A stretch of DNA of 64,000 nucleotides from Bacteroidales bacterium (lineage in GTDB: Bacteria; Bacteroidota; Bacteroidia; Bacteroidales; WCHB1-69). The position numbers were made by a program, and so were the translations under genes. Shown piece by piece: positions 27,032 through 51,724 of the stretch. The stretch lies in the NCBI GenBank assembly GCA_045534635.1, contig JAZSKB010000051.1, positions 4,663 to 68,662 on the forward strand, given 5' to 3'. Within the stretch, counting starts at the first letter, position 1; the number at the start of each line of letters is the position of its first letter. A model generated the notes under the pieces. It had not been told where the DNA came from. It did not search any database and was given only the letters and a program-made list of their open reading frames with translations.

Positions 27032-29788
27032 TTAATTTCCATTCTTAATTTTTAATTGTTCTTCCAAATCTTGAATATTTATAATACGAACTTCGCGAAC
27101 TTTACTACCGATAGAAGGACCTACAATACCTTCTCTTTCAAGTTGGTCCATTATTCTTCCTGCTCTATTGTAACCTATTTTAAATTTACGTTGCAAGAAA
27201 GATGTTGAACCTTGTTGTTTTTCTACAACTTCACGAGCGGCATCATCGAACAAGGGGTCAAATTCGCCATCATCTGCCTGTTGTATAGTGGTTTCCGAAG
27301 CATCATCTGCCACTTCTGGCAATAAAAAGGCATCGGTATAACCATGTTGTTCTCCGATAAAAGCACATATTTTTTCTACTTCCGGAGTGTCAACAAGTGC
27401 ACATTGTACACGAGTAATATTACTACCTGTAGATATTAACATATCGCCTCGACCTATTAAATTGTTGGCACCAGTAGCATCTAAAATTGTTCGTGAGTCT
27501 ATTTTTGAAGATACCTTAAAAGCAATTCTCGCTGGGAAATTTGCTTTGATAATACCTGTAATAATATTTACAGAAGGACGTTGTGTTGCAATAATCAAAT
27601 GAATGCCTATTGCTCTTGCCAATTGTGCCAAACGGGCAATTGGTTGTTCTACTTCTCTTCCTGCTGTCATAATACAATCGGCAAATTCATCAAATACCAA
27701 TACAATATATGGAAGAAAACGATGTCCATTTTCTGGATTAAGACATCTTTTTTTGAATTTTTCGTTGTATTCTATAATATTTCTACATTCGGCACTTTTC
27801 AACAATTCGTACCGCATATCCATTTCGTTGCACAATGAATTTAATGTTTTTACTACTTTTTTAGTGTCGGTAATAATTGCTTCGGCAGAATCGGGTAATT
27901 TTGCTAAATAATGTCTTTCTATTCGTGCATACAATGTTAGTTCTACCTTTTTGGGGTCAACTAAAACAAATTTCAATTCGGCAGGATGTTTTTTGTACAA
28001 CAAAGATGTTAATACGGCGTTTAAACCTACCGATTTCCCTTGTCCGGTGGCTCCTGCCATTAAAACGTGAGGCATTTTTGCCAAATCGAAAACAAATACT
28101 TCATCGGAAATGGTTTTGCCTATTGCTATTGGCAATGCCATTTTTTCACTATTTTGAAATTTTTCTGATAAAATACATGTTTTCATTGGAACTATTTGAG
28201 GTGTTGTATTGGGAACTTCTATACCTATTGTTCCTTTGCCCGGTATTGGTGCAATAATTCTTATTCCTAATGCTGAAAGGCTCAAAGCAATATCATCTTC
28301 CAAATTTTTAATTTTAGAAATACGAATGCCCGGAGCAGGAACAATTTCATACAATGTAATGGTTGGTCCTTCTATTGCACTTATACTGGATATTTGTATT
28401 TTGTATGTTTCTAATGTATCTTTGATACGTTGTTTGTTTTTTGCTATTTCTGCAATTTTTTCTTCTTTTGTGCGAGTTACATTTGCATAATCTTCCAAAA
28501 AATCTGAACTTGGAAATTGAAAATTAGGCAATTCTGCACGAGGGTCGAATGGTCCAAATCTTGCACACAAGTCTTCGGCTGTCGTTAATTCTTCTCTTGT
28601 ATATTCTATTGGTTCTAATGATTCTTTATCAACATTTTGTTCTTCTTCTGTTTCTTCTGTTGGAATATCTACCACTTCATTGAACATTATTTGTTCATCA
28701 GTTGTTTCTTGAGATAAAATTTCTTCTTCTGTATCATCCAAAAGCACATCTTGACCGCCAAAAGTATCATTTTCAGGATATTCTTCTAAAATATTTTCTT
28801 TAGGCAATTCTACTGTTGTTACAGAAAATGTTAAACGTTCATCAATGGATATTTCTTCATTATTAATATCCTCTTTTTCTTTTAAAGAGGCTATATTCTC
28901 TTCTTTTAAAGATGGTTCTTCCGTTTTTTCTTCTTCTAAATTTATTTGTTTTTTCTTTTTTCTAAACAATTTTGTCCAAATACTCGGTTGTGACAATTGA
29001 GGTTTTTCTATTGTTTCTTCTGGTAAAGTTAAATCAGATGTTGTTTTATTTGTTTGTTCTGGTATTTCTTCGTCAATATCTTCGCATGTTGATTTTTTAT
29101 TTTTTATCAACAATTGCCAACCTCCTAATATTATCAAAATTGCTGAAGCATAAAATAATAGAAGTAAAATTACTCCAATAAAACCTATTTTTTGTTCTAA
29201 ATATAAAAATACATCTTGACATATTTCTCCACTACTCCATTCCGCAATATTGATAGTTGCCGAAAACAACGAAACCCAAATAATAATTGCAATTGTTATT
29301 ACTGTCGTTTTAAACAAAGGCAATATTGATACTTTAAACATCAATCGTACTGCATATAAGAAAAATAATAACAATACTCCAAATGCGGCTATCCCAAACC
29401 ATTTTTTTATAAATAAAAATGAAAAATACATACCCAAAACACCCAACATGTTTTTTACTCTTCCGTCTGCATTGATTTGGAAAAGATTGGTATTGAACAA
29501 ACTATCATCTGCATCGTGGGTGCCTAAAAAAGAAATAAAAGATAATAAAAGAAAAAAAGTAAATATTAACAAAAATAAACCATTCAACACCTTAAATGTG
29601 TCGGATTTCACAAATGCTAAAAAACTTGAACCCTTACTTGTAGATTTTTGTCCTTTGGAGGTGCTTTTTTGGGAAGAACGTTTATTTTTTACTTTCTTTT
29701 TCTTTTCGCCTTTCTCCAACTTTACAGCGGTTTTAGCAACTTGTTTCGACTGATTTACATTTACTTGAAACCTTTCTTTATTCGACAT
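27032..29788 (-). CDS. ftsK: DNA translocase FtsK/SpoIIIE
   Basis: 918 aa with N-terminal TM helices and an acidic linker. Walker A is GATGQGKS, the motor domain is present, and there is a C-terminal winged-helix gamma domain (LQRKFKIGYNRAGRIMDQLE). Confidence 0.93.
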   Translation of the reverse strand: MSNKERFQVNVNQSKQVAKTAVKLEKGEKKKKVKNKRSSQKSTSKGQKSTSKGSSFLAFVKSDTFKVLNGLFLLIFTFFLLLSFISFLGTHDADDSLFNTNLFQINADGRVKNMLGVLGMYFSFLFIKKWFGIAAFGVLLLFFLYAVRLMFKVSILPLFKTTVITIAIIIWVSLFSATINIAEWSSGEICQDVFLYLEQKIGFIGVILLLLFYASAILIILGGWQLLIKNKKSTCEDIDEEIPEQTNKTTSDLTLPEETIEKPQLSQPSIWTKLFRKKKKQINLEEEKTEEPSLKEENIASLKEKEDINNEEISIDERLTFSVTTVELPKENILEEYPENDTFGGQDVLLDDTEEEILSQETTDEQIMFNEVVDIPTEETEEEQNVDKESLEPIEYTREELTTAEDLCARFGPFDPRAELPNFQFPSSDFLEDYANVTRTKEEKIAEIAKNKQRIKDTLETYKIQISSISAIEGPTITLYEIVPAPGIRISKIKNLEDDIALSLSALGIRIIAPIPGKGTIGIEVPNTTPQIVPMKTCILSEKFQNSEKMALPIAIGKTISDEVFVFDLAKMPHVLMAGATGQGKSVGLNAVLTSLLYKKHPAELKFVLVDPKKVELTLYARIERHYLAKLPDSAEAIITDTKKVVKTLNSLCNEMDMRYELLKSAECRNIIEYNEKFKKRCLNPENGHRFLPYIVLVFDEFADCIMTAGREVEQPIARLAQLARAIGIHLIIATQRPSVNIITGIIKANFPARIAFKVSSKIDSRTILDATGANNLIGRGDMLISTGSNITRVQCALVDTPEVEKICAFIGEQHGYTDAFLLPEVADDASETTIQQADDGEFDPLFDDAAREVVEKQQGSTSFLQRKFKIGYNRAGRIMDQLEREGIVGPSIGSKVREVRIINIQDLEEQLKIKNGN

Positions 29789-29867
29789 GTGTAATCAACT
29801 CAAAAATAAATAAAACATTTATTATCAAATAATTATATATTTGTATCTATACAAAATACTCATTTTA

Positions 29868-29875
29868 CAAAGATA
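29868..29875 (-). promoter_or_regulatory. -7 box (TATCTTTG, minus strand) for ftsK
   Basis: Exact TAnnTTTG match ~80 nt upstream of the ftsK ATG. Confidence 0.45.
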
Positions 29876-30081
29876 ATTATTTGATATAATGAGATAATTC
29901 GCTCTAATTATAAATTGTAAACAACGGGGTGTTAATTAATAATGGATAAATACAAAGAGACAAGATACAAAATATTGTTTGTTGATGAGAGCAGATAGGA
30001 AAGATTTTCCAAGATAGACAATCCATTGGAAAAATTGTCAAAAGTATAGAAGAAAGTAGGTTTCGTATTAATTTTTTTTTG

Positions 30082-30089
30082 TATCTTTG
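30082..30089 (+). promoter_or_regulatory. -7 box (TATCTTTG) driving leader repeat copy 1 and gene 30210..31064
   Basis: Exact TAnnTTTG match directly 5' of the conserved leader. Confidence 0.5.
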
Positions 30090-30096
30090 CAAAATG

Positions 30097-30185
30097 AAAC
30101 AACCTTTTTGTTGTGGTTTAGATGGTTCTAAATGCAACCTCAGCTGTCAAAACTGCGGTAAAAGGTAAAGAAGTAAAAATTAGAG
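30097..30185 (+). repeat. Leader repeat R1, copy 1
   Basis: AAACAACCTTTTTGTTGTGGTTTAGATGG...CTCAGCTGTCAAAACTGCGGTAAAAGGTAAAGAAGTAAAAATTAGAG. It ends 25 nt before the ATG at 30210. Copies are at 36259 and 37967. Confidence 0.8.
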
Positions 30186-30209
30186 AGTACCAAAATACCA
30201 CAACCATTC

Positions 30210-31064
30210 ATGAAAGAACTATTTTTTTACATACGATTTGTCTTGTTGCTAATCCTCCCTTGTTTTTCCGCCAAAGCACAAACAGAACGCCACCCGCTTT
30301 GTGACAGTCTGTATAAACATTCGGGAACCTTCTCCGCCGACTCCTCCGTCTACAGTATGCGGATTGGCGACCGAACAATAGACTTCCCTTTATCGTTCAA
30401 AACATGGTGGGGACGAGCATATAGTGCTGAAACCACTTTCGTTGAAAATGGCACCATCTACATCTTCCGTGAGTACTCTTTTAATATTAATTTGGAGACA
30501 CCATGTATTTGCACATCTTTCTATTACATCATCCCTCACAAACATGCAGACCATCCTTCCCACCTGCAAAAAATGTTTTACCGCTGGGAAGACAGTACTT
30601 CATATTTCACCGAATCGGTCAATTACATCTATGAAGCGGGTGTAACGCTTGCACATAACAACTTAAGGGACATGCCACGACACTGGTACCCAATCAAAAA
30701 ATACGACGGAAAGTATTATCTCAGCATAGATTACCCCTATATGACCGAACTGTGCGACAGTGTTGAGGTATTTCACGGAATGGAACTATCCGTTTTACCC
30801 ATCCGGAATGTGTCGAAACAGGGCAACAATTACCATTATGAACTCTGTAACCTGTACGACAACAACAAGTGGTATCGTGTCACACTCTCTCCCTACCAGA
30901 ACAACAAAATGCTGTGGGTTCGCACCGTGGAAAATCCGGATGGAAAAATCAAAAAAGAATTAATGACGACGGAAAAACATGTCCAGCACTTCGACCTGAT
31001 AGAATGGGAATCCAGTGATCATATACCGAATGGACTTGAACACTATGACAAAATTGATTTTTAA
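30210..31064 (+). CDS. Hypothetical secreted protein (island cassette)
   Basis: 284 aa with signal peptide FVLLLILPCFSAKAQ. No domain recognised. GC-richer than the backbone. Confidence 0.55.
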   Translation: MKELFFYIRFVLLLILPCFSAKAQTERHPLCDSLYKHSGTFSADSSVYSMRIGDRTIDFPLSFKTWWGRAYSAETTFVENGTIYIFREYSFNINLETPCICTSFYYIIPHKHADHPSHLQKMFYRWEDSTSYFTESVNYIYEAGVTLAHNNLRDMPRHWYPIKKYDGKYYLSIDYPYMTELCDSVEVFHGMELSVLPIRNVSKQGNNYHYELCNLYDNNKWYRVTLSPYQNNKMLWVRTVENPDGKIKKELMTTEKHVQHFDLIEWESSDHIPNGLEHYDKIDF

Positions 31065-31101
31065 CAGATACATCTCCATAATAACCATTGTGAACTATAT
31101 T

Positions 31102-31132
31102 CTTTCATTATGTAAAAATAACATAATGAAAG
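31102..31132. terminator. Bidirectional hairpin between convergent island genes
   Basis: 11-bp perfect stem CTTTCATTATG/CATAATGAAAG. Confidence 0.55.
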
Positions 31133-31207
31133 TAATTGTTTTTGTCTTATCATTGCATATTGTTTATAAAAACATCTTTGACAAATCTTTTCACAATGGT
31201 GGTGTTG

Positions 31208-32128
31208 CTATCTATTGCGAATCTCTTCTTTGATATTTTTGTCACCGTATTTTTTTGCCTTTTTCAAATAAATCTCCTCTTTTTTCTTGTCACCTATACG
31301 ATTATACGCCTCTGCAATATTGAGTAACACCAACGCATCTCGTGGATTCGCTTCTTCTGCTCTTAACAACCACATCAAAGCGGAGTCTTCCTGCCCCATG
31401 ATATGATAGGTAGCCGCCATTATATTGAGACTAAAGACATCCTGCGGATATAGTCGCAACATACTTTGTGCAATGCTACGTATATAGCATATCTTCAAAG
31501 TATCTTGTATGGTCAGAGTATCAGAATTTGACAACGCATTATATAGTGTCTTCTCATAATCAAAAATTGAATATATCAGTATAGTGTCTATAGATTCAGT
31601 GATATTTGGATACTCCCATGCATTATTGTTTTTTTCAGCATGTTCAAGGGTTGACAGTATCTCATCTGTATAAGATTGCCATCGTCCGCTTTGGCTTAAT
31701 AGGTATATTTTCCCGAAACGCATGTCTAAACGGTCAGGATACCGTAGTATACCCTCTGAAATAATTAAAAGAGCGGAATCTGTCAAGAGGGAATCGTAAT
31801 ATTCCACACCATACATATATCCGGCAACATTCCCTATGCTGTCAGTCAAGGTGAACACTCCGGACACATCTATTCCTTCCGGAAGTTCTGTGGAAAGAAT
31901 AGGACCTTTTGAAACATGTGCCTTATTCACCCAATAATTGTATTCTGCAATGTAACGTTCTGCACTTTGGTCGTTACCGTAACGAATTTCGGACAATGTC
32001 TGCTCAATTGTAGCACTATCATTTTCACGCAAAGCTTTATAAAAGTTGTCATATACATTCTGAGCATCCGCGATTTCGCATGAAAAAGCATATAGCACTA
32101 CAACTACACTGATTATCAATTTTTTCAT
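31208..32128 (-). CDS. Hypothetical secreted TPR-like protein (island cassette)
   Basis: The start is taken at MKKLIISVVVVLYAFSC (32128), which lies downstream of the shared promoter. The C-terminal part looks like TPR helices (NIAEAYNRIGDKKKEEIYLKKA). Confidence 0.55.
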   Translation of the reverse strand: MKKLIISVVVVLYAFSCEIADAQNVYDNFYKALRENDSATIEQTLSEIRYGNDQSAERYIAEYNYWVNKAHVSKGPILSTELPEGIDVSGVFTLTDSIGNVAGYMYGVEYYDSLLTDSALLIISEGILRYPDRLDMRFGKIYLLSQSGRWQSYTDEILSTLEHAEKNNNAWEYPNITESIDTILIYSIFDYEKTLYNALSNSDTLTIQDTLKICYIRSIAQSMLRLYPQDVFSLNIMAATYHIMGQEDSALMWLLRAEEANPRDALVLLNIAEAYNRIGDKKKEEIYLKKAKKYGDKNIKEEIRNR

Positions 32129-32190
32129 AAATAAAAACATTAAAAATTTTGTAATTGCAAAAGTAATCAAAATTTTAAATACTGCCGATA
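32129..32190. repeat. Repeat R2, partial copy (promoter arm only) with minus-strand -7 box at 32158..32165
   Basis: CATAAATAAAAACATTAAAAATTTTGTAATTGCAAAAGTAATCAAAATTTTAAAT is nearly identical to 32974..33030. The minus strand carries TACTTTTG. Confidence 0.75.
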
Positions 32191-32199
32191 TATGCAAAA

Positions 32200-32973
32200 T
32201 CAAGGCAATTCATCCAGTTCAATGCTGACAACCGCGGTTTTTCCGCTGGACGAACCCACATATTTATAGACCAGATTACGGTTGGTGGCTTTAATGGTAC
32301 TAGTCAGACTTTGTGTTGTCACACCATTGACGACTAAATTCTCAATAATCCCTTTCTTCATTTCCGACAGATTATTATTCAAATTGTCAATATCAATAAC
32401 CGACTCATCGCATTCATATATGTAAACGAAACTTTTTTTATCCAACTGCACATCCTTAATCGTCAAGCCCCTGACCACTTCCATAGGAATTTGCATTTTC
32501 ACGTTGTCATAGACGGATTTCAGCAGCATTTCCGGATCGGCATCAGCTCCGGGCATGTTTGCTTTAAGCTCTTCAACAGTGAAGTATATACTGAAGTTCC
32601 TTTCTTTCCCGTCAATAAAAATCAACAGCAGATCCGCATTGGCCCTTATAACTGCTTCAAAAAGCTTTTTAAACGACTCGTTCTGATTATTGGCAAAACC
32701 TAAAAGTACATTGCTGCGCAAGGCGGCCTCATTTGAACGAAAGGAATCAAGATTCATCTGTCCTGCAACAACACCATAGGTTATTACAACCGTGTTATGC
32801 GAATAATCCATATTCTCAATCGACGTATACTCGTCCACCTGAATAGGGCATTCTTTCGCTACTTCTTTGATAATATTTTTAAGTTCCTTTTTGTTTTTTT
32901 GAACATTGCTGCCACATAAGACGTATGATAGCATCAAAGGCAACACAAGTATACTGATTATCAGTTTTTTCAT
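32200..32973 (-). CDS. Hypothetical lipoprotein (island cassette)
   Basis: 257 aa. MKKLIISILVLPLMLSYVLCG shares its first 7 codons with the gene at 31208..32128. Confidence 0.55.
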   Translation of the reverse strand: MKKLIISILVLPLMLSYVLCGSNVQKNKKELKNIIKEVAKECPIQVDEYTSIENMDYSHNTVVITYGVVAGQMNLDSFRSNEAALRSNVLLGFANNQNESFKKLFEAVIRANADLLLIFIDGKERNFSIYFTVEELKANMPGADADPEMLLKSVYDNVKMQIPMEVVRGLTIKDVQLDKKSFVYIYECDESVIDIDNLNNNLSEMKKGIIENLVVNGVTTQSLTSTIKATNRNLVYKYVGSSSGKTAVVSIELDELP

Positions 32974-33205
32974 AAATCAAAACATTGAAAATTTTGTAAT
33001 TGCAAAAGTAATCAAAATTTTAATTCTTAATAACTTTTCCTGTGAAAATTTTCCTTTGTTGCTTTATATCCGCAGTGGAATATATTCCGATTGGTTCGTC
33101 TCACAAGGACTGCTTTTTCAATTGCGGGAGGCAATATTCCGTGCATCTTTCCGTTATATAAAAATAACATTGGGAAACATCCATGCATAAAACAGGTTCA
33201 GTGCT
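32974..33205. repeat. Repeat R2, full copy a: divergent intergenic module (minus-strand -7 box at 33003..33010)
   Basis: Shares long identical strings with 35336..35630: GCAAAAGTAATCAAAATTTTAATT, TTCCTTTGTTGCTT, CCGATTGGTTCG.CTCACAAGGACT, CAATATTCCGTGCATCTTTCCGTTAT. Confidence 0.8.
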
Positions 33206-34201
33206 ATGAATATCAGAGACATCTTTGGTTTCCGCGAGCACCGGCACACGACGGAAAGATTGCGGCACGTGGCCTTCGGGCATGCCGCCACCGCCTGTGG
33301 TGCGATGGTGACGCTGGCTGCTTTCTATACATTATGGATACTGATCATGCATTGTACGATGGAGGACGATCCGCATCATCTCTTTGTCAAACAGATGAAG
33401 AGCGGCAACGTGGTCATAAAACGGCTCAACGCCTACCGCGACAGCTGCGGTGTTTTCCCGGAAGGTCTTGAAAGTATCGGCTTCCGTAAATTACACGGGG
33501 ATAACTTCTTCGGCGTCCAGAACCCCTTCTCTGTATATTATCACATTTTTGAGTATATCCGGCTGGACGACACCTCCTTCTATCTTGGATATGAGGATTG
33601 GTCTGGCGGAAGAGAACAATACTTGTCGTCCGAAGAACGGTGGCGGATGGTCATATATGGATGTGATGAGCATTCAGAAAGACTTCCTGACTACTATGAA
33701 GGTCGGGATGTTACTTCCGTCTATCTGCACGAATATGAAATAGCGGATCATCAGGACACCATACGGAAACTGCTGGAAACGCTTATAGATAACCGTAACG
33801 ATGCCGGACAGCAGTTCCTGCTGACGTTTTTCCACAGTTATGATACGGCATACAGCCATTTCTCCGAGGATTTCACATATAGGGAGGATACCGTTTATCG
33901 CATACGCCACAACAGCGTTTTACAAACATTTGACCTTTCGAAGCCTTATGCCTATCTGGACATGTTCAGCGATATTGACGGCTACCTTCTGATAAACGGG
34001 CATATCTGCTTTTTTTCTGATAGGTCATGGTATCCCATCGCTCGCCGAAGGCTGCATCAGACTGGCAGGGGACGGGTATTCACCGATCCTGTCAATTTAA
34101 AACCGAGCGTTGGCAACGACCAGTGCTGGTTTCTTGACATGGAGTTCCACTACTACGGTGGTAAAGCATCGCTACAGGGGACATGTATTCTTACATGGTA
34201 A
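33206..34201 (+). CDS. Hypothetical membrane-anchored protein (island cassette, most GC-rich segment)
   Basis: 331 aa with one N-terminal hydrophobic helix (MVTLAAFYTLWILIM). No domain recognised. Confidence 0.5.
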   Translation: MNIRDIFGFREHRHTTERLRHVAFGHAATACGAMVTLAAFYTLWILIMHCTMEDDPHHLFVKQMKSGNVVIKRLNAYRDSCGVFPEGLESIGFRKLHGDNFFGVQNPFSVYYHIFEYIRLDDTSFYLGYEDWSGGREQYLSSEERWRMVIYGCDEHSERLPDYYEGRDVTSVYLHEYEIADHQDTIRKLLETLIDNRNDAGQQFLLTFFHSYDTAYSHFSEDFTYREDTVYRIRHNSVLQTFDLSKPYAYLDMFSDIDGYLLINGHICFFSDRSWYPIARRRLHQTGRGRVFTDPVNLKPSVGNDQCWFLDMEFHYYGGKASLQGTCILTW

Positions 34202-34212
34202 AAAAATGCACG

Positions 34213-34410
34213 TCACCACGGCTGATGCTGTTGGAGAAAGATTTCCTTCACGCCATGTCTGGGGACCCCAATAAAATTCGGAAAAAAAACTCCCTTCATG
34301 GCGGATGATGTATGATTTCCCGTCCTGATGCACCCTTCAACTATGATAATCTTCTCCATTGGAGAGTTAAAATATTTTTTAAGAATTGATTGTATCTTTC
34401 TTTCAAGCAT
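34213..34410 (-). pseudogene. Possible N-terminal fragment of an AAA-type ATPase gene
   Basis: 65-aa ORF. MLERKIQSILKKYFNSPMEKIIIVEG.IRTG resembles the N-terminus (up to the P-loop position) of Bacteroidales AAA/DUF4143-type ATPases, but the P-loop is destroyed. Confidence 0.25.
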
Positions 34411-34459
34411 GGTCCGTCACATTTTCTATCCGATAAAAATACAACCTTTTCCGATTTTT

Positions 34460-35335
34460 TCATCCCTGACAGGCTTCGCAGAAACTGCTGGCGTTTTTGC
34501 GTAAATAAGCAACCAGCAACGCATCAATATTCTCTTCTTTATCTAAACGGGAAAATTTATCAACCAGATGAGACATTTTATTAAACATCGGATCCGATTC
34601 CTTCTCCTCCGTCCATTCGGTACAGCAGAAACGTTCGTTCTCCTCCGTCATAATTGTTTGCAACGCCTCCGCATGTTTCACAGCACCAATTTCACGATAG
34701 GCACGAATAAGAAGGTATTCTCCGTCAAAAGACTTCTTCCAACCTTCTCCTTCACAGACAATATTGTAGAAAATATCGATATAATAAAGGTAATAACATA
34801 TATCTTGCACGTGTTTATGTTCATCAGATAAATTTTTATCATAATGGAAATCGCTGCACCAATCTATAAGCTCCTCATCATAAAGGCTGTCAAACAGTTC
34901 GCGGGTCATACGGGGAAAGCGAGCAAGTTCGGCAGTTTTTTCAAACTGTTTCAAAATACTTGTTCTACGATAAAGATATATAGCTAACAACAGACAAGGA
35001 ATACTTCCGAAAAGCAGGGTTATCTTCAAAATGTCGAAACTACTGTATTTCTGCCAAATTTCCTCCAAACCCATTATAATGAATAGAAAAAATATTAATG
35101 GAATTAATGAAAAAAACAGCATAAGTGGAATATAGACCCACAGATTTAAACGCTCCCTCCGCCCTGTGGAACCAGTTGTGACTTCACAATAAGCGTAATG
35201 ACGTTTCGCACCGCAGTAGGGACAGGTACGCACAAACACCTCACCCTCTTTCTCTCGAATCTCATCCACCGTCTCATAACGGCCTTTGATAGGGATATGC
35301 TCTCCACACTTGCCGCAATTTACATAGTATTTCAT
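34460..35335 (-). CDS. Zinc-ribbon / two-TM protein with a DUF4375 (DMP19)-like C-terminal domain (island cassette)
   Basis: 291 aa. CGKCG...CPYCG zinc ribbon and two hydrophobic helices. The C-terminal helical domain tentatively resembles the DMP19/immunity-type fold. Confidence 0.5.
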   Translation of the reverse strand: MKYYVNCGKCGEHIPIKGRYETVDEIREKEGEVFVRTCPYCGAKRHYAYCEVTTGSTGRRERLNLWVYIPLMLFFSLIPLIFFLFIIMGLEEIWQKYSSFDILKITLLFGSIPCLLLAIYLYRRTSILKQFEKTAELARFPRMTRELFDSLYDEELIDWCSDFHYDKNLSDEHKHVQDICYYLYYIDIFYNIVCEGEGWKKSFDGEYLLIRAYREIGAVKHAEALQTIMTEENERFCCTEWTEEKESDPMFNKMSHLVDKFSRLDKEENIDALLVAYLRKNASSFCEACQG

Positions 35336-35630
35336 AACTTTATTTTTTAAATGGCAAAAGTAATCAAAATTTTAATTTTTTATAACTTTTCCTATGAAAT
35401 TTTTCCTTTGTTGCTTTTAATCTGTAGATGGGATATATTACCGATTGGTTCGCCTCACAAGGACTATTTTTTCAATAAAATAAACTTGCATTACGTTTTC
35501 TTCACTCATTCCACCTGCGTTTTTTCGGTTGCGGAACGCAATATTCCGTGCATCTTTCCGTTATGTAAGAAATAACATTTGGGAATATCCATAAAAAAAA
35601 CAGTATTAACAGTTTAAAGCAGATTCTATT
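35336..35630. repeat. Repeat R2, full copy b, with an internal ~55-nt insertion (minus-strand -7 box at 35355..35362)
   Basis: Same module as 32974..33205, plus extra sequence ATAAAATAAACTTGCATTACG...GGTTGCGGAACG between the two conserved arms. Confidence 0.8.
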
Positions 35631-36203
35631 ATGAAACAAATTATTCTACTCGTTGTCATTTTAATAATAGTCATTGCCATTCTGTTGCTGAAATTCAAAT
35701 TCCATTACCCTGATGTAACGAAAGATGCTTTTGTTGAAAAAAACAAATCAATGGAAAAAAGAGTGATTTTGATTGAAGAAATGAGTGAAGAACAATTGAA
35801 TGATGCCATTCATGAATTTATTGGCATGTACAAGGATAATATAGATATTTCTACTTTGGAAGAACCGCTTGTTACACGCTACGAAAAAGGATTTCTTCTC
35901 ACCTTTTCTGCAAACGTTGACTATGATTTGTTTTGCTTTTGGGTGAATTATCTTGTTTATTCCGATAAGGAACAGAAAGAAAGATATTCAGTTTACGGAT
36001 GGTATCCTTTCGGTGAAGTGGAACGTCAGAAAGAAACCATAAATTTCAGCGGTAAAACCATTATGCTTTACATTCCCAAAGAGGATGACGAATTTGATAA
36101 TGTGTATATAATTACACCTGACAATCAATATTATAAGAATGAGTTTGCTGGAACGACGAAGGCAATCTCCCCTCGTAAGGAACAATACCGCCTAAAACCT
36201 TAA
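35631..36203 (+). CDS. Hypothetical membrane-anchored protein (island cassette)
   Basis: 190 aa with N-terminal TM helix IILLVVILIIVIAILLL. Confidence 0.5.
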   Translation: MKQIILLVVILIIVIAILLLKFKFHYPDVTKDAFVEKNKSMEKRVILIEEMSEEQLNDAIHEFIGMYKDNIDISTLEEPLVTRYEKGFLLTFSANVDYDLFCFWVNYLVYSDKEQKERYSVYGWYPFGEVERQKETINFSGKTIMLYIPKEDDEFDNVYIITPDNQYYKNEFAGTTKAISPRKEQYRLKP

Positions 36204-36258
36204 TACCTCCGCATTCAAAAAGTGCAGTGATTCCCTTATTTTATACTGAATTTACGAT

Positions 36259-36347
36259 AAAACAACTCTTTTGTTGCGGTTTAGATAGTTTTATGTAACC
36301 TCGATTGTCAAAAACTGCGATGAAAGGAAAAAAATCGAAAATTAGAG
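36259..36347 (+). repeat. Leader repeat R1, copy 2
   Basis: AAACAACTCTTTTGTTGCGGTTTAGATAG...CTCGATTGTCAAAAACTGCGATGAAAGGAAAAAAATCGAAAATTAGAG. It ends 19 nt before the ATG at 36366. Confidence 0.75.
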
Positions 36348-36365
36348 GTTCCCAAAAATAAAATT

Positions 36366-36908
36366 ATGGCAAGAATAATAAAAATAACAAGGAGTTCATC
36401 TACAGGTTGGTGGGCATGGACAGCAGGAGATTGCTCTGGTTGGGCAAACTCAAAAAGAGAAGCAAGGCGACAAGCTAGAGAAGCTCTATCATCAGGAAAT
36501 TGTGATTGTGAAATAACTCCCCCAAACGGAGGTATTATCGTTAATAATAATTCATCAAATGAAGGAAATAGTACAATTTATTTCCCAGATACGAATGGAA
36601 AAATGAAGGAGTATCCTTTAGATGAAATAAATGAAAATACTGCTATGTGGTTGTTAGGTAGTTGTAATTATATAGAAGAAGACTCAACACCAGAAGAACG
36701 AGTTATTGCTCTTTTAAAAGTTTGGGATATTTATCAAGGAGATATAGTTTTATCTGATATTTTGGTAAATCATAATTTACAAGCAGAGGAATTTTATATT
36801 TTAGCCTCAAAAGAATGGAATTATATATTTATTAATATAGATAACGATGAAAACATTTCATGGACTTTTTCTGATACAGATCCTGATCCTGATTTTGGTA
36901 ACGAATAA
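36366..36908 (+). CDS. Hypothetical protein (island cassette)
   Basis: 180 aa, with no signal peptide and an acidic C-terminus. No domain recognised. Confidence 0.45.
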   Translation: MARIIKITRSSSTGWWAWTAGDCSGWANSKREARRQAREALSSGNCDCEITPPNGGIIVNNNSSNEGNSTIYFPDTNGKMKEYPLDEINENTAMWLLGSCNYIEEDSTPEERVIALLKVWDIYQGDIVLSDILVNHNLQAEEFYILASKEWNYIFINIDNDENISWTFSDTDPDPDFGNE

Positions 36909-37485
36909 TATATATGGGCAAACACCTTTCGGAACGGAAAAGGTAAAAAATGTTGACAATCTGTTTGTAGATTGTTCCGAAGTTACCAATATCAGTTGGA
37001 TGGAATACCTGTATTTCTTAAAGATCGAATACGGAGAAAATTCTCCGCAATATAAAGCTGCTGTTCCTGATACAACTTTGACCGGCTATTCTTTCAAACA
37101 TCCGACATACCGTAACTATCCTGTTGTGGGCATTACTTACGACCAAGCGTTAGCTTATGCCCGATGGCGAACCAAAGCTGCGAACATAATTTTGGAGCAA
37201 TCCAGCAAAAAATATCGTTATGAATATCTATTAGCTTCTGAAGAGGTTCTCCAACAAGCATTTTCACAACAAAAGAGCAAGTTGGGTCAATTGTCGGCAC
37301 TGCAAGCCGTAACATCAAAAAAAATGGTACATATTGATGACAATGCCAAAGAAATCACTTCCGACAAAACCATTGTTATCGGTGCTCAAGGAGAGCAATT
37401 GACATTTGAACCCTATCAAAAACCAGACGCTGCAACAAGTTTCCGTTGTATGGCAAGAGTTGTCAAATGTGTAAAAACGAAATAA
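36847..37485 (+). CDS. Short FGE-sulfatase/SUMF1-fold protein with signal peptide (island cassette)
   Basis: 212 aa. Contains EVTNISWMEY, YPVVGITYDQALAYARWR and a C-terminal SFRCMARV, typical of the formylglycine-generating-enzyme fold. Its 5' 62 nt overlap the preceding ORF. Confidence 0.55.
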   Translation: MKTFHGLFLIQILILILVTNNIYGQTPFGTEKVKNVDNLFVDCSEVTNISWMEYLYFLKIEYGENSPQYKAAVPDTTLTGYSFKHPTYRNYPVVGITYDQALAYARWRTKAANIILEQSSKKYRYEYLLASEEVLQQAFSQQKSKLGQLSALQAVTSKKMVHIDDNAKEITSDKTIVIGAQGEQLTFEPYQKPDAATSFRCMARVVKCVKTK

Positions 37486-37487
37486 GT

Positions 37488-37514
37488 AAGGGAGAAAAGA
37501 CAATCTCCCTTTTA
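37488..37514 (+). terminator. Hairpin terminator after the FGE-fold gene
   Basis: 8-bp stem AAGGGAGA/TCTCCCTT followed by TTTATAATT. Confidence 0.55.
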
Positions 37515-37920
37515 TAATTGATATTCAAAATGGTGATGAAGAAAGCCGCGAAAAGAATAAGATAAAGACACAACGCCCTCACCGAAAAGCATTCAACAGA
37601 CTAGGCATTATTAACTATTGTACCCGACACGTAGGGAGAATTAACTGTGAGCGATTATTATTTTTATCTATCTTCCGATAATGATGATTGGGGAATTGTA
37701 TTCTCAATTAGTGAATTAACCGAGTGGAAAATGATGAGGAAATAAATGAACAAGAACATCTTTAACACCAAAATCAACGACCAGAACACTTACTTTGGAA
37801 ACTTGCCCGATAGTACATGCTAGAAAAGAAATAATTTGCCTATGACACGTTTTGACATAGATGTGTTTTAATTTTGCAGCACAAAATGCAAAAAACTGAT
37901 TATCATAATTATTTTTTATG

Positions 37921-37928
37921 TATATTTG
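37921..37928 (+). promoter_or_regulatory. -7 box (TATATTTG) in front of leader repeat copy 3
   Basis: Exact TAnnTTTG match ~40 nt upstream of the conserved leader core. Confidence 0.45.
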
Positions 37929-37966
37929 CAGATTGAAAATATTGCAGTTTCAGTTTTAAAGGGAAT

Positions 37967-38013
37967 CTCAGCTGTCAAAAACTGCGGTAAAAGGAAAAAA
38001 GTAAAAATTAGAG
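37967..38013 (+). repeat. Leader repeat R1, copy 3 (3' core only, no downstream gene)
   Basis: CTCAGCTGTCAAAAACTGCGGTAAAAGGAAAAAAGTAAAAATTAGAG. It runs straight into a hairpin instead of a start codon. Confidence 0.75.
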
Positions 38014-38029
38014 ATAACCTCTAATTTTT
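38003..38029. terminator. Bidirectional hairpin at the right island boundary
   Basis: Stem AAAAATTAGAG/CTCTAATTTTT with loop ATAAC. Its left arm is the end of leader copy 3. Confidence 0.55.
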
Positions 38030-38412
38030 ATACCTTTGCTTCTAAAAAAAGTATCAATGGTTTTGCCACTTTTTTAAAAGAATTACATGGAATATCATAT
38101 TTCATACCATAAAAACCTTTATGTCCATATTTTGCAACCATTAAAGACATTCCTGTTTTAATTCCAGATAGATAGGTAACCTTTTCAATTTCATTATAAA
38201 AGATTCTTTTTCTTCGATGAAATATTCGCGTCAGAAAAAAAACTTCATAATATTCATCATAAAAATAAAAAATACGAAAAATGAATATAAAATATTAAAC
38301 CTATATAAATACTCAATGGTAGGTAGAATTTATTTATACATAAAACAAATAATGGTAGTACCAATTGTAATGTAATTACATTTCCCCAGTCAATACCAAC
38401 TTTTATTTTCAT
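38028..38412 (-). pseudogene. Possible frameshifted small membrane protein gene (two TM helices plus a bacterial-PH-like tail)
   Basis: The ATG at 38412 opens ~50 codons (MKIKVGIDWGNV...). The +1 frame continues ...YNEIEKVTYLSGIKTGMSLMVAKYGHKGFYGMKYD... to a stop at 38028. The junction lies in T-runs. Confidence 0.3.
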
Positions 38413-38493
38413 TTTTTAGTAATTTTTTACTATACAAAATTTTAAATCAAAGAAAGGAATTTTGAGAAGAAAGAGAATTTTTTGAGATATAAA

Positions 38494-39069
38494 TTAAACC
38501 AATCCAGCAAATCCCATAAAAGCCAACGCTAAAATACCTGCGGTGATAAGAGCAATAGGCATTCCTTGCATATTTTTTGGAGGCTCACACATTTCTATAT
38601 GTTCTCTACATCCAGCAAAAAGAATTAAAGCAAGAGCAAAACCTACGGCGGTGAAAAACGCATACAAGAGAGCACCTCCAAGATTGTAATTTTGTTGAAT
38701 AACCATAATAGATACACCTAAAACAGCACAATTGGTTGTAATTAGTGGTAAAAATATTCCTAATGCTTGATACAACGAAGGACTAATTTTTTTAAGTACA
38801 ATCTCTAACATTTGTACTAATGCAGCAATGATAAGAATATAACAAATAGTCTGTAAAAATACCAAATCAAGAGGAACAAGGATATATTGATAAACTAAAA
38901 AAGTTGCTAATGTTGCCATTGTAGTAACAAAAATTACAGCGGCCCCCATACCAGCAGATGTCGCTATTTTATTGGAAACACCCAAAAAAGGACAAATTCC
39001 TAAAAATTGAGAAAATACAATATTATTTACAAATACTGTCGAAATGATAATAAAAATTAAAGCGGTCAT
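38494..39069 (-). CDS. rnfA: Rnf electron transport complex subunit A
   Basis: 191 aa polytopic protein with RnfA/NqrE-type sequence (NNIVFSQFLGICPFLGVS). Confidence 0.92.
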   Translation of the reverse strand: MTALIFIIISTVFVNNIVFSQFLGICPFLGVSNKIATSAGMGAAVIFVTTMATLATFLVYQYILVPLDLVFLQTICYILIIAALVQMLEIVLKKISPSLYQALGIFLPLITTNCAVLGVSIMVIQQNYNLGGALLYAFFTAVGFALALILFAGCREHIEMCEPPKNMQGMPIALITAGILALAFMGFAGLV

Positions 39070-43029: not shown

Positions 43030-43088
43030 TTTGTGAAATATAATTTTACAAGTGATTTTGAATTTGAAAAGTTGGATTAAAATACTTG

Positions 43089-44078
43089 ATGGAAGAGAAT
43101 AAGATTATTATCTATCAAACGGAGGACGGACAGACACAGATTGATGTCCGAATGGAGAATGAGACCGTGTGGCTGACGCAGGCTCAGATGGCAGAATTGT
43201 TTCAGACAGACCGCACATCAATCGTTCGTCACATCAATAACATTTATAAGGTGGAAGAACTTGACAGAGAATCAACCTGTGCAAAAATTGCACAAGTTCA
43301 AATTGAGGGCAAAAGAACGGTAAAACGAAGTGTTCCATATTTCAATTTGGACATGATTATTTCTGTGGGTTATCGTGTTAATTCCAAACGAGGTGTTAAG
43401 TTTCGTCAGTGGGCAAACCGTATTTTGAAAGATTACCTCGTCAAAGGCTATGCCGTACACGATCGCATCCGCAAGGAGCAGATTGGCGAGTTGCGGCAAC
43501 TGGTTGGGATGCTTGGACGTACGATGCAAAGCCAGTCGTTGCTATCCAATGACGAAACGAATGCTTTGTTTGAGGTAGTCACCGATTATACCTACGCCCT
43601 CGACACGCTCGACAACTATGACTACGAGCGACTGACCATTGACAAGACCACCAAAGAAGAGCCTTTCCACGCCACATACGAGAATGCGATGAAAGAGATT
43701 CGCTTGTTGCGTGAAAAGTTTGGTGGCTCGGTACTCTTTGGTAACGAGAAGGACGACTCGTTCAAAAGCTCGATTGGACAGATTTACCAGACTTTCGGAG
43801 GCGAGGAACTCTACCCGAGTGTGGAGGAAAAAGCCGCAATGTTGCTGTATTTGGTAACCAAAAACCACTCGTTCAGCGACGGCAACAAACGCATTGCAGC
43901 GACGCTTTTCCTGTGGTTCCTCAACAATAACCGCATCCTCTATCGCCAAGATGGTTCCAAACGCATTGCCGACAACACCCTCGTCGCTCTAACCCTGATG
44001 ATTGCCGAGAGCAAAACGGAGGAGAAAGATGTGATGGTGAAGGTGGTAGTGAATTTGATTAACCAGGAAAATCAATAA
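43089..44078 (+). CDS. RhuM-family protein with a C-terminal Fic/Doc domain
   Basis: N-terminus IIIYQTEDGQTQIDVRMENETVWLTQAQMAELF...ISVGYRVNS is typical of RhuM. The C-terminal motif HSFSDGNKRIAA matches the Doc-type HxFxDxNKR core. Confidence 0.8.
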   Translation: MEENKIIIYQTEDGQTQIDVRMENETVWLTQAQMAELFQTDRTSIVRHINNIYKVEELDRESTCAKIAQVQIEGKRTVKRSVPYFNLDMIISVGYRVNSKRGVKFRQWANRILKDYLVKGYAVHDRIRKEQIGELRQLVGMLGRTMQSQSLLSNDETNALFEVVTDYTYALDTLDNYDYERLTIDKTTKEEPFHATYENAMKEIRLLREKFGGSVLFGNEKDDSFKSSIGQIYQTFGGEELYPSVEEKAAMLLYLVTKNHSFSDGNKRIAATLFLWFLNNNRILYRQDGSKRIADNTLVALTLMIAESKTEEKDVMVKVVVNLINQENQ

Positions 44079-44081
44079 ACA

Positions 44082-44136
44082 CGTAAAAATCAATATTTAT
44101 GGTTTTGTGCTTAAAAAGTTGTAATTTTGCGGCGGA
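44082..44136 (+). repeat. Promoter segment, copy 2 (contains the -7 box TAATTTTG at 44123..44130), upstream of mcrB-like gene
   Basis: Direct repeat of 42966..43029, starting 4 nt after the rhuM stop codon. Confidence 0.7.
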
Positions 44137-44226
44137 GTTTTCTTGTTGAGATTCATTTGAAAGATTTGATAGAGAATGAATTGATATTTGCAAATTCATA
44201 TTTATTTGAACAATTAATAGTATATT

Positions 44227-46068
44227 ATGGACAACATTCGTTATTGGACCTTTAAACACAAACCGGGAGAAAAAGCTAATGAGGATAAGTGCAAGGAACT
44301 TATTTTACAAGCTGTTCGAAACAATTATGTTTTTATGCAATATGAGTATGGCTTTGAAGACACACGAAAGGTAACACAAAATTGGAATAGAGTGCGAAAA
44401 GTATCAGAAGGTGACGTTATTTTTCTCAGAGGTGATAAAAACATATATGCCTATGGTTATGCCATACGACCTCGGTTGGAAGCTGATATAAAATTAAAAA
44501 TGCAAGACATTATTGACAATAAAGATCATGGGAAATATAACTCTTCCGATTTTTGCGGAATAATACATTTTGAAGACTCTGATGTTTTCTATGAGAACTT
44601 AGATGGCGAAGAAAATTGGGGGCAAAGGATTGATGTGGATTCTTGGCGATTGTATTATGAGAATGGAATACCTGCGCAATCGCAAGATTTATACCAACAA
44701 GGAGAAAATGAATATGGCGTATTGAAAGAATTAAAACCAGAAAAAGGTAAGGAAATAATTAATGAACTTTATAATTATTTAGGAATGAAAGGAGATGTAT
44801 TATCATTGTTAAAAACAAATCACAATCTCATTCTCACCGGTGCTCCGGGAACAGGGAAAACCTATTTGGCAAAACAGGTTGCGAGACTATTGCTTTTTGG
44901 AAAAACAAATGAAAATGAACTTAATGATGTTGAACGAAAACAATTCAACGAACAATATGGTTTCGTCCAATTTCACCCGAGTTATGACTATACTGACTTT
45001 GTAGAGGGCTTAAGGCCTATGCAAGATGAAACTGGTAATGTTGGGTTTGAACGCAAAGACGGCGTTTTTAAGGCTTTTTGCAAAAAAGCTGTATCATTGC
45101 CAAAAAATGACACCATAGACAATTTCAACGAAACGTGGGATAAGTTGGTTGCCACATTAAATGAAAACAATTACATTGATGTTCCATTTTTAAGCAATAA
45201 GAGTAAAAGTTTCAGAGTAGAACTTAATGAGTATGGAACAGGATTGGCAAACCGAACTTATCCAAATGACATATACGAGCAAGGTGGATGGATTTCAGGA
45301 CAGTCCAAGTTTTTCAGCAAAGACCAATTGTATAACATATATAGGGGACTGCCCGGTGTGCCTTCAGGCGGACACGATAATTATCGACGTGCAATTGTCG
45401 AAGAAATGAAAAAAAGTTTGGGATTGAAGCCTTATAAAGAAGGTAATTCTGTGGAGAAATCTGATAAAAACTTTGTCTTCATCATCGACGAAATCAACCG
45501 TGGTGAAATCTCCAAGATTTTTGGAGAATTGTTCTTTTCTATAGATCCAGGATACCGTGGAAAAGAAAAGGGAAAAATAAAAACTCAATATCAAAATCTT
45601 ATTGAGCAAGGGGATGTATTTTATGATGGTTTTTATGTCCCCGAAAACGTCTATATCATTGGTACCATGAACGACATCGACCGCAGCGTGGAGAGCATGG
45701 ACTTTGCTTTCCGCCGGAGATTTGCGTTCAAGGAAATCAAAGCTATAGACAGAGTTGAAATGCTCTATGACAGCAATAATGGAATTGAAAACTACGCAGA
45801 CGAGGCAAAAGAACGAATGAGCCGGCTCAACGAGGAGATTGAAAGAATTGAAGGTCTTTCTACCGCTTATCACATTGGTCCCGCTTATTTTCTTAAATTG
45901 AAAAACTACGATGGCAGCTTCCAAGATTTATGGGACAACCATTTGGAAGGACTTTTGAAGGAATATATGCGTGGAATGCAAGGTGTTGAAGATAAGATAA
46001 AAACTCTGAAAGAGGCTTATAATAACCCCAAAGCAACAAATACAGGTGATGCGGATGAAAATCTATGA
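44227..46068 (+). CDS. mcrB: McrB-family AAA+ GTPase restriction subunit with an N-terminal PUA/EVE-like reader domain
   Basis: 613 aa. Walker A is LTGAPGTGKT, Walker B is FVFIIDEINRG, and the McrB signature is IIGTMNDIDRS plus FAFRRRF. The N-terminal ~190 aa (IRYWTFKHKPG...) look like a PUA-fold modified-base reader. Confidence 0.85.
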   Translation: MDNIRYWTFKHKPGEKANEDKCKELILQAVRNNYVFMQYEYGFEDTRKVTQNWNRVRKVSEGDVIFLRGDKNIYAYGYAIRPRLEADIKLKMQDIIDNKDHGKYNSSDFCGIIHFEDSDVFYENLDGEENWGQRIDVDSWRLYYENGIPAQSQDLYQQGENEYGVLKELKPEKGKEIINELYNYLGMKGDVLSLLKTNHNLILTGAPGTGKTYLAKQVARLLLFGKTNENELNDVERKQFNEQYGFVQFHPSYDYTDFVEGLRPMQDETGNVGFERKDGVFKAFCKKAVSLPKNDTIDNFNETWDKLVATLNENNYIDVPFLSNKSKSFRVELNEYGTGLANRTYPNDIYEQGGWISGQSKFFSKDQLYNIYRGLPGVPSGGHDNYRRAIVEEMKKSLGLKPYKEGNSVEKSDKNFVFIIDEINRGEISKIFGELFFSIDPGYRGKEKGKIKTQYQNLIEQGDVFYDGFYVPENVYIIGTMNDIDRSVESMDFAFRRRFAFKEIKAIDRVEMLYDSNNGIENYADEAKERMSRLNEEIERIEGLSTAYHIGPAYFLKLKNYDGSFQDLWDNHLEGLLKEYMRGMQGVEDKIKTLKEAYNNPKATNTGDADENL

Positions 46069-50150: not shown

Positions 50151-50189
50151 TATCATTTTTAGTGAAGATAATTTTAAATAAATAATGTT

Positions 50190-50930
50190 ATGAAAAAAAT
50201 TGTATTTTTCTTGTCAATGATATTTGCATTATCGACTTTATTTTCTTCGTGTACAGTGTATCATCCTCAATCCGTTGATATTCCTCTTATTCGACACCAA
50301 AATGATTTACAAGTAGAAGGGGCTATTTCTATTTCTCCTTATCCTTATTCATCACCTACATTAAACGCTACTGCAACTTATAGTTTTAATAAATGGGGAG
50401 CAGTTCAAGCACATATAAATACTGATGGTTATACAGAACTTTATTTACAAACGGCTTTTGGTAGTTATCTCCCTATAAAACAACATTACGTAATAGAAGG
50501 TTATGCAGGTTATGGATTATGGGGTAGTAGAAAATCTGAAGCTTATGAATTATGGGATAGTAATGAACCTGAACCTTCTGGAATATATCATTGTCCTTTT
50601 TTACAATTTAACACTGGCTGGGTTGGACTTGCAAAAGAACATATTGATGTTGGTTTTGGGTTAAAAACAGGTTGTTTGATTAGCAAATATAGAGAAATAT
50701 CATCTAGTAGCTATACTTTAGAAGGAAATATTTATCAATCCATAGAGTTTAATGATTTTATAAATTATGCTCCATTGATAGAACCACAAGTTTTTATTCG
50801 ATTTGGAGGAAAAAAATTAAAAGGTTCATTACGAGTTAGTTATTGTACATTTTTGGGCATGGAGAATTTTGTTTATTTTCCTGCAAATATTAGCATAGGA
50901 ATTTCCTACAAATTTGAATTTAAAAGATAA
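50190..50930 (+). CDS. Lipoprotein paralog 1 (predicted beta-rich outer-membrane protein)
   Basis: 246 aa. Lipobox LFSSC. It shares framework blocks with the two downstream paralogs. Confidence 0.65.
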   Translation: MKKIVFFLSMIFALSTLFSSCTVYHPQSVDIPLIRHQNDLQVEGAISISPYPYSSPTLNATATYSFNKWGAVQAHINTDGYTELYLQTAFGSYLPIKQHYVIEGYAGYGLWGSRKSEAYELWDSNEPEPSGIYHCPFLQFNTGWVGLAKEHIDVGFGLKTGCLISKYREISSSSYTLEGNIYQSIEFNDFINYAPLIEPQVFIRFGGKKLKGSLRVSYCTFLGMENFVYFPANISIGISYKFEFKR

Positions 50931-50952
50931 TTTTTTTCATTAAAAGTACTTT

Positions 50953-50967: not shown

Positions 50968-51006
50968 TATCATTTTTAGTGAAGATAATTTTAAATAAAT
51001 AATGTT

Positions 51007-51702: not shown

Positions 51703-51724
51703 TTTTTTTTATTAAAAGTACTTT

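Follow-up and report, generated by a model that had tools for sequence, protein, structure and literature searches.

We analysed the interval between ftsK and rnfA in a 64,000-nucleotide (nt) stretch of a Bacteroidales genome (WCHB1-69 lineage; contig JAZSKB010000051.1, positions 4,663 to 68,662), hereafter the window. The interval holds a horizontally acquired, strain-variable accessory block of 8.1 kb, bounded and subdivided by copies of one repeat that consists of a promoter and a leader of ~100 nt. The explanation that we favour, at a probability of roughly 55%, is that the ftsK-rnfA interval is a cassette hot spot, in which a leader-bounded array would have been built by recombination at the leaders with an enzyme encoded elsewhere in the genome.

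The block was compared with contigs from other ruminant-gut metagenomes, found with the RnfA and LolA proteins of the window and designated here by numbers with the prefix L. The flanks of the matching contigs are 99.0-99.7% identical to those of the window, and these contigs are strains of the same species. In the empty alleles, L003/L163 and L009, base 30194 is joined directly to base 38290. The interval holds a single M50-peptidase gene of 245 amino acids (aa) in L001/L162 and a single bPH_1 gene of 124 aa in L004 and L006, and L002, L008 and L180 hold portions of the window's own insert. From the junctions of the empty and alternative-cargo alleles, the variable segment therefore spans 30195-38289. 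A sequence-only reading of the window had set the island at 30090-38030, with native DNA restarting at a hairpin at 38003-38029; the strain junctions correct the extent, and native DNA restarts at 38290 instead. The comparison with close relatives that it had proposed found the block absent or replaced in other strains. An extra variable AT-rich piece, missing in most alleles, occupies 38024-38289, and the stretch 38014-38289 was found only in the window, L002 and L006 alleles.

Sliding-window guanine-plus-cytosine (G+C) content and G+C at third codon positions (GC3) bore out the compositional shift claimed by that reading. The whole window has 31.9% G+C, and the segment 30195-38289 has 37.7% versus ~31% in its flanks. 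In 1-kb windows the backbone has a mean of 0.304 (standard deviation 0.027, maximum 0.375) and the region between 30 and 38 kb a mean of 0.381, reaching up to 0.455; 300-nt windows peak at 0.51 (33250-33549). The island carries eight substantial open reading frames (ORFs) in mixed orientation, and its genes, of 180-331 codons, have a G+C of 0.32-0.48 versus ~0.30 for the host. GC3 separates them cleanly from the backbone genes ftsK, lolA, bamA and rnfA-E, with values of 0.17-0.20 in the latter and 0.33-0.56 in ORF1-7 and ORF9; the sole exception among the island ORFs is ORF8, with a native-like 0.166. Both a compositional shift and presence/absence among close relatives, the marks of a genomic island, are found here.

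Two repeat families, the leader and a second one that we call family B, proved to be real and are confined to the island within the window. When all copies were aligned, the leader repeat resolved into a Bacteroidetes-type promoter (-7 box TAnnTTTG) followed by the ~100-nt leader, which is made of an imperfect hairpin (16-bp + 7-bp = 23 bp), an A-rich tail, the invariant AAAATTAGAG and a GTYRCC-like hexamer. The -7 boxes lie 6-12 nt upstream of most leader copies. A covariance model built from the leader alignment, R1, provides the bit scores in the following list of the elements that delimit the segment.

30060-30089, plus strand: promoter of leader copy 1, -7 box TATCTTTG at 30082-30089; conserved backbone, present also in the empty L003 and L009
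30096-30194, plus strand: leader copy 1 (R1 108.6 bits), with hairpin, A-rich tail, AAAATTAGAG and 6-nt spacer; the resident, att-like copy, present in every allele
30195-38289, unstranded: strain-variable inserted segment of 8.1 kb; missing in L003/L163 and L009, with different cargo in its place in L001 and L004/L006
36259-36356, plus strand: leader copy 2 (R1 101.2 bits), ~78% identical to copy 1, promoter box degenerate
37921-38022, plus strand: promoter and leader copy 3, with TATATTTG at 37921-37928 and the R1 match at 37935-38022 (67.8 bits)
38003-38029, unstranded: perfect 11-bp palindrome, AAAAATTAGAG-ATAAC-CTCTAATTTTT, terminator-like
38010-38089, minus strand: inverted degenerate leader copy (R1 25.5 bits, E=1e-4 in a local search), overlapping the end of copy 3
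up to 38289, minus strand: AT-rich remnant beyond the inverted copy, delimited by presence/absence across alleles
38290-38493, unstranded: resumption of the backbone, up to the 3' end of rnfA (38494-39069, minus strand)

That a repeated leader defines the edges of the island, as the sequence-only reading had it, stands; its left copy (30096-30194) is conserved backbone, not insert. The same reading missed a third copy at 36259-36356 and the degenerate inverted copy at 38010-38089, and overlooked that the repeat is a promoter with a structured 5' leader and that leaders divide the insert into at least three segments.

The cargo starts 6-7 nt after AAAATTAGAG, and the cargo sequences are unrelated to each other. 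This 3' junction is sharp: eight downstream sequences from three species (ORF1, ORF8, the M50 gene, the bPH gene, the backbone, the inverted remnant and two contexts from other species) diverge within ~3 nt after AAAATTAGAG + 6 nt, and cargo start codons lie 12-49 nt downstream of the leader end. The hexamer travels with the downstream DNA, GTTGCC being found before the backbone whatever the leader haplotype. Moreover, the number of leaders follows an n+1 pattern, with one leader in the empty allele, two in the single-gene allele and three forward copies plus one inverted remnant in the window, and the last leader of every array faces the backbone without cargo. In the window this last leader, copy 3, has a remodelled 5' arm in its hairpin region and is fused head-to-head with the inverted leader remnant at the cargo-junction position, which is what the palindrome at 38003-38029 consists of. 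Across 38003-38089 the fused leaders give an 11-5-11 palindrome, and the GGTNACC-like consensus of the spacer is itself nearly palindromic. A leader peptide was considered and rejected, since in other haplotypes a stop codon comes after the ATG at 30122 and the frame is shifted by indels.

In a structure test on 11 sequences, mostly closely related, 97.5% of the pair cells on the leader-sense strand are standard pairs, against 39-59% in slid-partner controls; 12 of the 23 pairs change on one side only with the pairing kept, and RNAalifold recovers the same helix independently. Pairs of the G.U type occupy 34% of the cells and the opposite strand would pair in 63% only. This points to a leader structure formed on the transcribed strand, as RNA or possibly as single-stranded DNA. 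The narrow sampling of the test, the lack of any double compensatory change in the hairpin and a shuffle control that cannot separate it from chance speak against it, and we regard the leader hairpin as plausible, not proven.

The leader is not peculiar to this species. Homologues with 80% identity precede unrelated small membrane or zinc-ribbon ORFs, at unrelated loci, in at least two further Bacteroidales species of the rumen. In L025, a metagenome-assembled genome (MAG) from buffalo rumen with ~48-50% G+C, the leader heads a run of small co-oriented ORFs of ~35% G+C that adjoins an S8 peptidase gene, and in L060, another rumen MAG, it precedes a zinc-ribbon membrane ORF. These two were the sole true ones among the matches listed in a scan of genome contigs that used a 17-nt core and returned mostly chance matches. 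In a third species (L174-178) a DMP19-like gene is preceded by AATTTAGAGGTTGCC, a remnant of the leader's 3' part. Two scans of metagenome contigs and one viral scan for the leader gave no real match, BLAST of the leader (30061-30200) against plasmids gave none, and neither did BLAST of 30061-38300 against phages.

These results can be brought together in a cassette model. The fixed element would be the promoter with its ~100-nt leader, predicted to be transcribed, and foreign segments would be placed directly after it, each insertion being followed by another leader copy, so that n segments give n+1 leaders and an empty site has one. The simplest origin of the n+1 topology, and the one that we favour, would be a Campbell-type process in which circles that carry cargo and one copy of the repeat integrate and are excised by recombination inside the leader or at its 3' end. 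The candidate enzyme would be either an unlinked site-specific recombinase or RecA acting on ~100-250 nt of homology, and the first gene of each segment would gain its own promoter, 5' stem-loop and A-rich translation-initiation region. Under this model the insert of the window would be a composite of a 6.1-kb patchwork (ORF1-7), largely derived from the S46-gidB region of a relative with ~38% G+C, an ORF8-ORF9 segment, and an inverted remnant of a leader, which gives rise to a terminator.

The sharp 3' junction seen across species, the cargo-less terminal leaders, the head-to-head fusion at the junction and the invariant AAAATTAGAG argue for a site-specific event. Besides the weak points of the hairpin given above, several observations weigh against the model or against a fixed crossover. 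The leader copies combine two or three haplotypes in mosaic form, and on the 5' side the repeat has no constant length, with extents from 63 nt in copy 3 to 254 nt in L004/L006, where it reaches 150 nt upstream of the promoter into the backbone; a fixed crossover point accounts for such features less well than general homologous recombination or gene conversion. The piece 38014-38289 has no leader at its right end and breaks the simple n+1 rule, and the 6.1-kb first segment, with its mixed orientation and internal promoters, is not a simple cassette. No recombinase is linked to the locus: in the 64-kb window, no ORF that reaches 90 aa has a tyrosine-recombinase motif of the HxLRH[TS] type or an RHTxA+LGH motif, and no integrase Pfam domain was found among the genes annotated over 25 kb around the hot spot of L001/L162. 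This agrees with the earlier statement that no recombinase or toxin gene lies nearby, to which the motif scan of the 64 kb and the Pfam searches lend support. Finally, the array could equally well have been shaped by deletion between leaders as by insertion. Integration in inverted orientation was tried as an account of 38014-38289 and fails, as the right junction has no GGTNACC half-site.

The cargo of the other alleles bears on how segments may be captured. Both the M50 and the bPH gene have ordinary chromosomal homologues in other species. None of the relatives of the M50 cassette protein exceeds 61% identity, and one of them (P0176, 60% identical) sits in an ordinary chromosomal setting. 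The bPH cassette of L004 is 88% identical at the nt level to a native bPH gene that another species carries between nadA and an Fe-S gene, and the match (L004 4995-5549, L148 7977-8445) starts 24 nt upstream of the ATG, at about +12 of the native 5' untranslated region (UTR), and ends at the last T of the intrinsic terminator. By these limits the bPH cassette looks like a transcript-shaped unit, resembling a copy of a transcript rather than an arbitrary DNA segment. As no leader is present in the contexts of bPH and M50 homologues in other species (L148-161, L171-173), the leader does not generally travel with these families. A narrower form of the cassette model would be a recombinase-unlinked system whose attachment site lies in the promoter-proximal hairpin leader, with a crossover between AAAATTAGAG and GTYRCC and with transcript-shaped capture, and each gene taken up would be expressed as soon as it arrives; a mechanism that is templated by RNA or works on single-strand DNA would agree with the strand specificity of the G.T/G.U hairpin. 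We hold this form to be speculative and rather doubtful.

Much of the same evidence can be read as an ordinary transfer hot spot, in which strains exchange whole ftsK-rnfA alleles through homology in the flanking core genes and the leader is a locally duplicated promoter and 5' UTR, a mobile promoter that plays no part in recombination. The 99% identity of the flanks across alleles, the mosaic leaders and variable repeat lengths, the absence of a recombinase nearby and the further synteny breaks close by, at 18865 and 42916, all agree with it. Mobile promoters, near-identical promoter regions upstream of non-homologous genes within and between genomes, are already described (Nijveen et al., 2012, PMC3575422), and our repeat is like them in placing the same promoter-containing region before non-homologous genes. 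It differs in including a structured leader, in occurring in tandem at a polymorphic site, in its sharp 3' junction and in its cargo-less copies. Allele swapping leaves unexplained why unrelated cargo in three species starts at the same leader nucleotide, why a cargo-less leader is kept in empty alleles and at every array end, and why an inverted leader copy is fused exactly at the cargo junction. We see it as the main competitor, possible although unlikely.

The leader could also be primarily a regulatory RNA, either a cis-acting 5' UTR element or a small RNA gene, that co-regulates genes for envelope proteins. In favour of this are a G.U-rich, strand-specific hairpin that is conserved across species, the promoter boxes ahead of the copies and the cargo start codons, which lie 12-49 nt downstream. 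Copy 3 with the terminator hairpin that follows folds with a z of -4.3, and in this reading would give a discrete RNA of ~95 nt. In Rfam searches the window had no match at the gathering score besides one tRNA, and 29700-38600 had none even at E<=1; no double compensatory changes accompany the hairpin, and a regulatory role leaves the cargo-less copies and the presence/absence polymorphism unexplained. As the primary role of the leader, and also in the form of the discrete RNA, this is improbable, but it is compatible with the cassette explanation and not exclusive of it.

The sequence-only reading had likened the island to orphan-immunity or acquired interbacterial defence arrays. The closest described system is indeed rAID-1 (recombinase-associated acquired interbacterial defence) of gut Bacteroidales, whose defining features are a recombinase of the XerD family, short genes of low G+C in a common orientation, and intergenic motifs that are conserved (Ross et al., 2019, 10.1101/471110; Azhieh et al., 2025, PMC12247911). 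[quoted passage not shown] The Bacteroidales host, the short accessory genes for exported proteins and lipoproteins, the repetitive intergenic sequences, the skewed G+C, the strain variability and an integron-like look are common to both, and the leader-headed region of L025, with ~35% versus ~50% G+C, fits the orientation and G+C feature of rAID-1. In contrast, of the three rAID-1 features tested at our locus (recombinase, orientation with G+C direction, and immunity homology) none was found. Neither the 64 kb nor the 25 kb surrounding the site in L001/L162 showed a tyrosine recombinase, of the XerD family or otherwise; the genes are not co-oriented and their G+C is higher than that of the host; and no Imm, SUKH or other immunity family was matched at E<=0.1 by the island ORFs in Pfam or NCBIfam. 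PADLOC returned nothing relevant at E<=0.01, just weak TPR and CARF-like noise. Moreover, the M50 and bPH cargo has ordinary chromosomal homologues, the ORF1 domain is found elsewhere fused to a rhamnosidase, TonB_C or WG repeats, the locus sits between the core genes ftsK and rnfA, and its repeat is a promoter with a hairpin leader. An acquired defence array is very improbable here. Of the suggestion of an uncharacterised cassette system, the cassette-like, leader-bounded and strain-variable layout holds, whereas its reading as an immunity array is unsupported.

A chimeric MAG contig joined at the repeat, suggested by the G+C jump and the edge repeats typical of mis-joins, is effectively refuted because independent assemblies run across the two outer junctions and cover most of the interior: 25901-32035 in L180 (ftsK, leader, ORF1 and ORF2), 32994-36914 in L011 and L012, and 36323-42916 in L002 (ORF8, ORF9, leader and rnf). 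Many samples' assemblies break inside 29971-30146, which is expected because the repeat has several contexts.

Returning to the cassette hot spot, its layout invites comparison with integrons and Xer-dependent modules. Like integrons, it has promoterless cargo at a fixed site next to a promoter, one imperfect hairpin repeat per cassette, n+1 sites per array and cargo that begins at a short GTT-type hexamer. Unlike them, it has no IntI, and its repeat, which has a promoter of its own, is placed 5' of each gene. Each segment does end with an imperfect hairpin repeat, but the hairpin is G.U-rich, 26 nt of A-rich tail separate the stem from the junction, there is no R''/L''-L'/R' attC organisation, and the boxes do not fit the attC consensus RYYYAAC...GTTRRRY (GTYRCC is no match for GTTRRRY). 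A classical integron was rejected, as no IntI or other tyrosine recombinase and no boxes of the attC consensus were seen in the window. The pdif modules of Acinetobacter and the arrays of integrative mobile elements exploiting Xer (IMEX) at dif use short repeated sites, recombinases encoded elsewhere and n+1 tandem sites. Our locus shares with them modules bounded by repeated sites, n+1 sites and a recombinase that would be unlinked; it differs in that no dif-like 11-6-11 site was recognised, the sole palindrome (38003-38029) is a leader fusion, and the location is chromosomal and not on a plasmid. The adjacent ftsK and a flip in GC skew at ~43 kb had made a dif/IMEX site a candidate, which was rejected because the polarity of the flip is origin-like, it falls at a synteny break that is strain-specific, and no dif-like site was seen. 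We file the locus as a member of neither the rAID nor the integron group.

The genes and internal elements of the insert are the following.

30210-31064, plus strand: ORF1, 284 aa, secreted, two beta-rich domains; a rare family without Pfam annotation
31102-31132, unstranded: terminator-like bidirectional hairpin between ORF1 and ORF2
31208-32128, minus strand: ORF2, TPR lipoprotein (Pfam TPR_17, 3.4e-6), start placed at MKKLIIS
32200-32973, minus strand: ORF3, lipoprotein of 257 aa
32940-33195, unstranded: family-B divergent promoter module, copy 1, with minus-strand core promoter TTGATTACTTTTGCAA
33206-34201, plus strand: ORF4, 331 aa, N-terminal transmembrane anchor
34460-35335, minus strand: ORF6, zinc ribbon, two transmembrane segments and a DMP19/DUF4375-like domain
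35344-35603, unstranded: family-B divergent promoter module, copy 2, from repeat analysis and alignment
35631-36203, plus strand: ORF7, 190 aa, N-terminal transmembrane anchor
36366-37485, plus strand: ORF8-ORF9 pair, ORF8 of 180 aa and ORF9 of 212 aa with a signal peptide
37488-37511, strand not given: terminator following the ORF8-ORF9 pair

In the inspected translations, seven of the eight ORFs carry a signal peptide, lipobox or transmembrane anchor at the N-terminus, ORF8 being the one without, in agreement with the earlier description of mixed-orientation ORFs that are nearly all exported or anchored. The folds named tentatively by the same reading (TPR, DMP19 and FGE-sulfatase) were upheld at the Pfam level for ORF2, ORF6 and ORF9; the other island ORFs matched no family in Pfam or NCBIfam, and the gene fragments that it had listed (34213-34410 and 37647-37823) received no family assignment in Pfam searches. 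ORF1 has 34 relatives among 1.84 billion representatives, and its AlphaFold2 (AF2) model (pLDDT, a predicted confidence score, of 89.8) has two beta-rich domains with no PDB match at E<1e-3; its domain occurs elsewhere at the C-terminus of the rhamnosidase mentioned above, and its junction with the leader was confirmed in L180. ORF2 and ORF3 have the promoter, the 5' UTR and the first 11 codons in common (repeats D1 and D5; alignment A3). ORF6 matches DMP19 at 6e-6, above the gathering score, and ORF9 has a partial FGE-sulfatase match (3e-5) along with partial GldJ/GldK matches.

Homologues of ORF3, ORF4, ORF6 and ORF7 occur in the interval between an S46 peptidase gene and gidB of a relative with ~38% G+C, at 75-92% nt identity. 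ORF3 is 92% identical in nt and 88% in aa to a gidB-adjacent gene in L143; ORF4, the most G+C-rich gene of the island (48%, GC3 0.56), is 82% identical in aa to a gidB-adjacent gene in L174; ORF7 is 83% identical in aa to genes in L143, L174 and L175; and the only nine homologues found for ORF6 are located in this S46-gidB hot spot. The first segment (30195-36258) is thus, as judged from these homologies, probably a patchwork imported from an S46-gidB-type region, which would account for its mixed orientation and its two family-B modules. The family-B promoter, TTGATTACyTTTGCAA, also stands before gidB in L146, and copies of it enclose the DMP19 gene there and the ORF3 homologue of L143. Since family B brackets cargo at S46-gidB, the promoter-cargo-promoter layout is not peculiar to the leader repeat.

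The S46-gidB interval (L143 8580-17064; L146 8973-10964; L174 1-7599) is itself variable, with 2 to 8 genes, and its cargo includes an M6 peptidase with a type IX secretion system (T9SS) tail and a Kinase-PolyVal protein. In another Bacteroidales MAG (GCA_024696895.1, L179 1971-4225) a DMP19-like homologue of ORF6, with 41% aa identity, is followed by a co-oriented 191-aa exported protein and a 238-aa protein with an FGE-sulfatase domain. This set echoes ORF6, ORF7 and ORF9, with no detectable homology between the partners and ORF7 or ORF9. ORF8 (36366-36908) has 180 aa in the window versus 101 aa in L011 (244-549) and L014, which are otherwise 99.8% identical, and it may be decaying in some strains.

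Further variable or repeated DNA was observed elsewhere in the window. Synteny with L162 and L163 ends at 18865, ~11 kb to the left of the hot spot, where another strain-variable junction lies; beyond it L162 has different genes (195, 282 and 49 aa, and a DUF8429 protein). On the other side a second G+C-rich island (43068-47389, GC3 0.34-0.56) encodes a RhuM plus Fic protein, a McrB-like AAA_5 ATPase of 615 aa and an overlapping 459-aa ORF that is possibly McrC-like. It starts where synteny with L001, L002 and L005 stops (42916, with secDF there in those strains), and the sign of the GC skew flips from negative to positive near that point, at ~43 kb. Three tandem paralogous lipoprotein genes (250, 235 and 243 aa) occupy 50178-52499, and their N-termini are almost identical, MKKIVFFLSM.FALS.LFSSC.VYH.Q.VDIPLIRHQNDLQ.EGAIS.

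If the leader is a true recombination-and-expression site, it would constitute a second route, besides integrons and rAID, for collecting single genes and expressing them immediately, and such single-gene capture would take place at a fixed chromosomal address in abundant uncultured rumen bacteria. As the cargo genes are mostly predicted to encode exported or membrane proteins, they may give the strains different envelope repertoires. R1 and the AAAATTAGAG-GTYRCC junction supply a sequence handle with which such arrays and their recombinase may be found in metagenomes. On the conservative reading too, our results document gene flow between the hot spots of different species, and they show that inserted genes lie between duplicated promoters at two hot spots, which differ in the promoter that is used.

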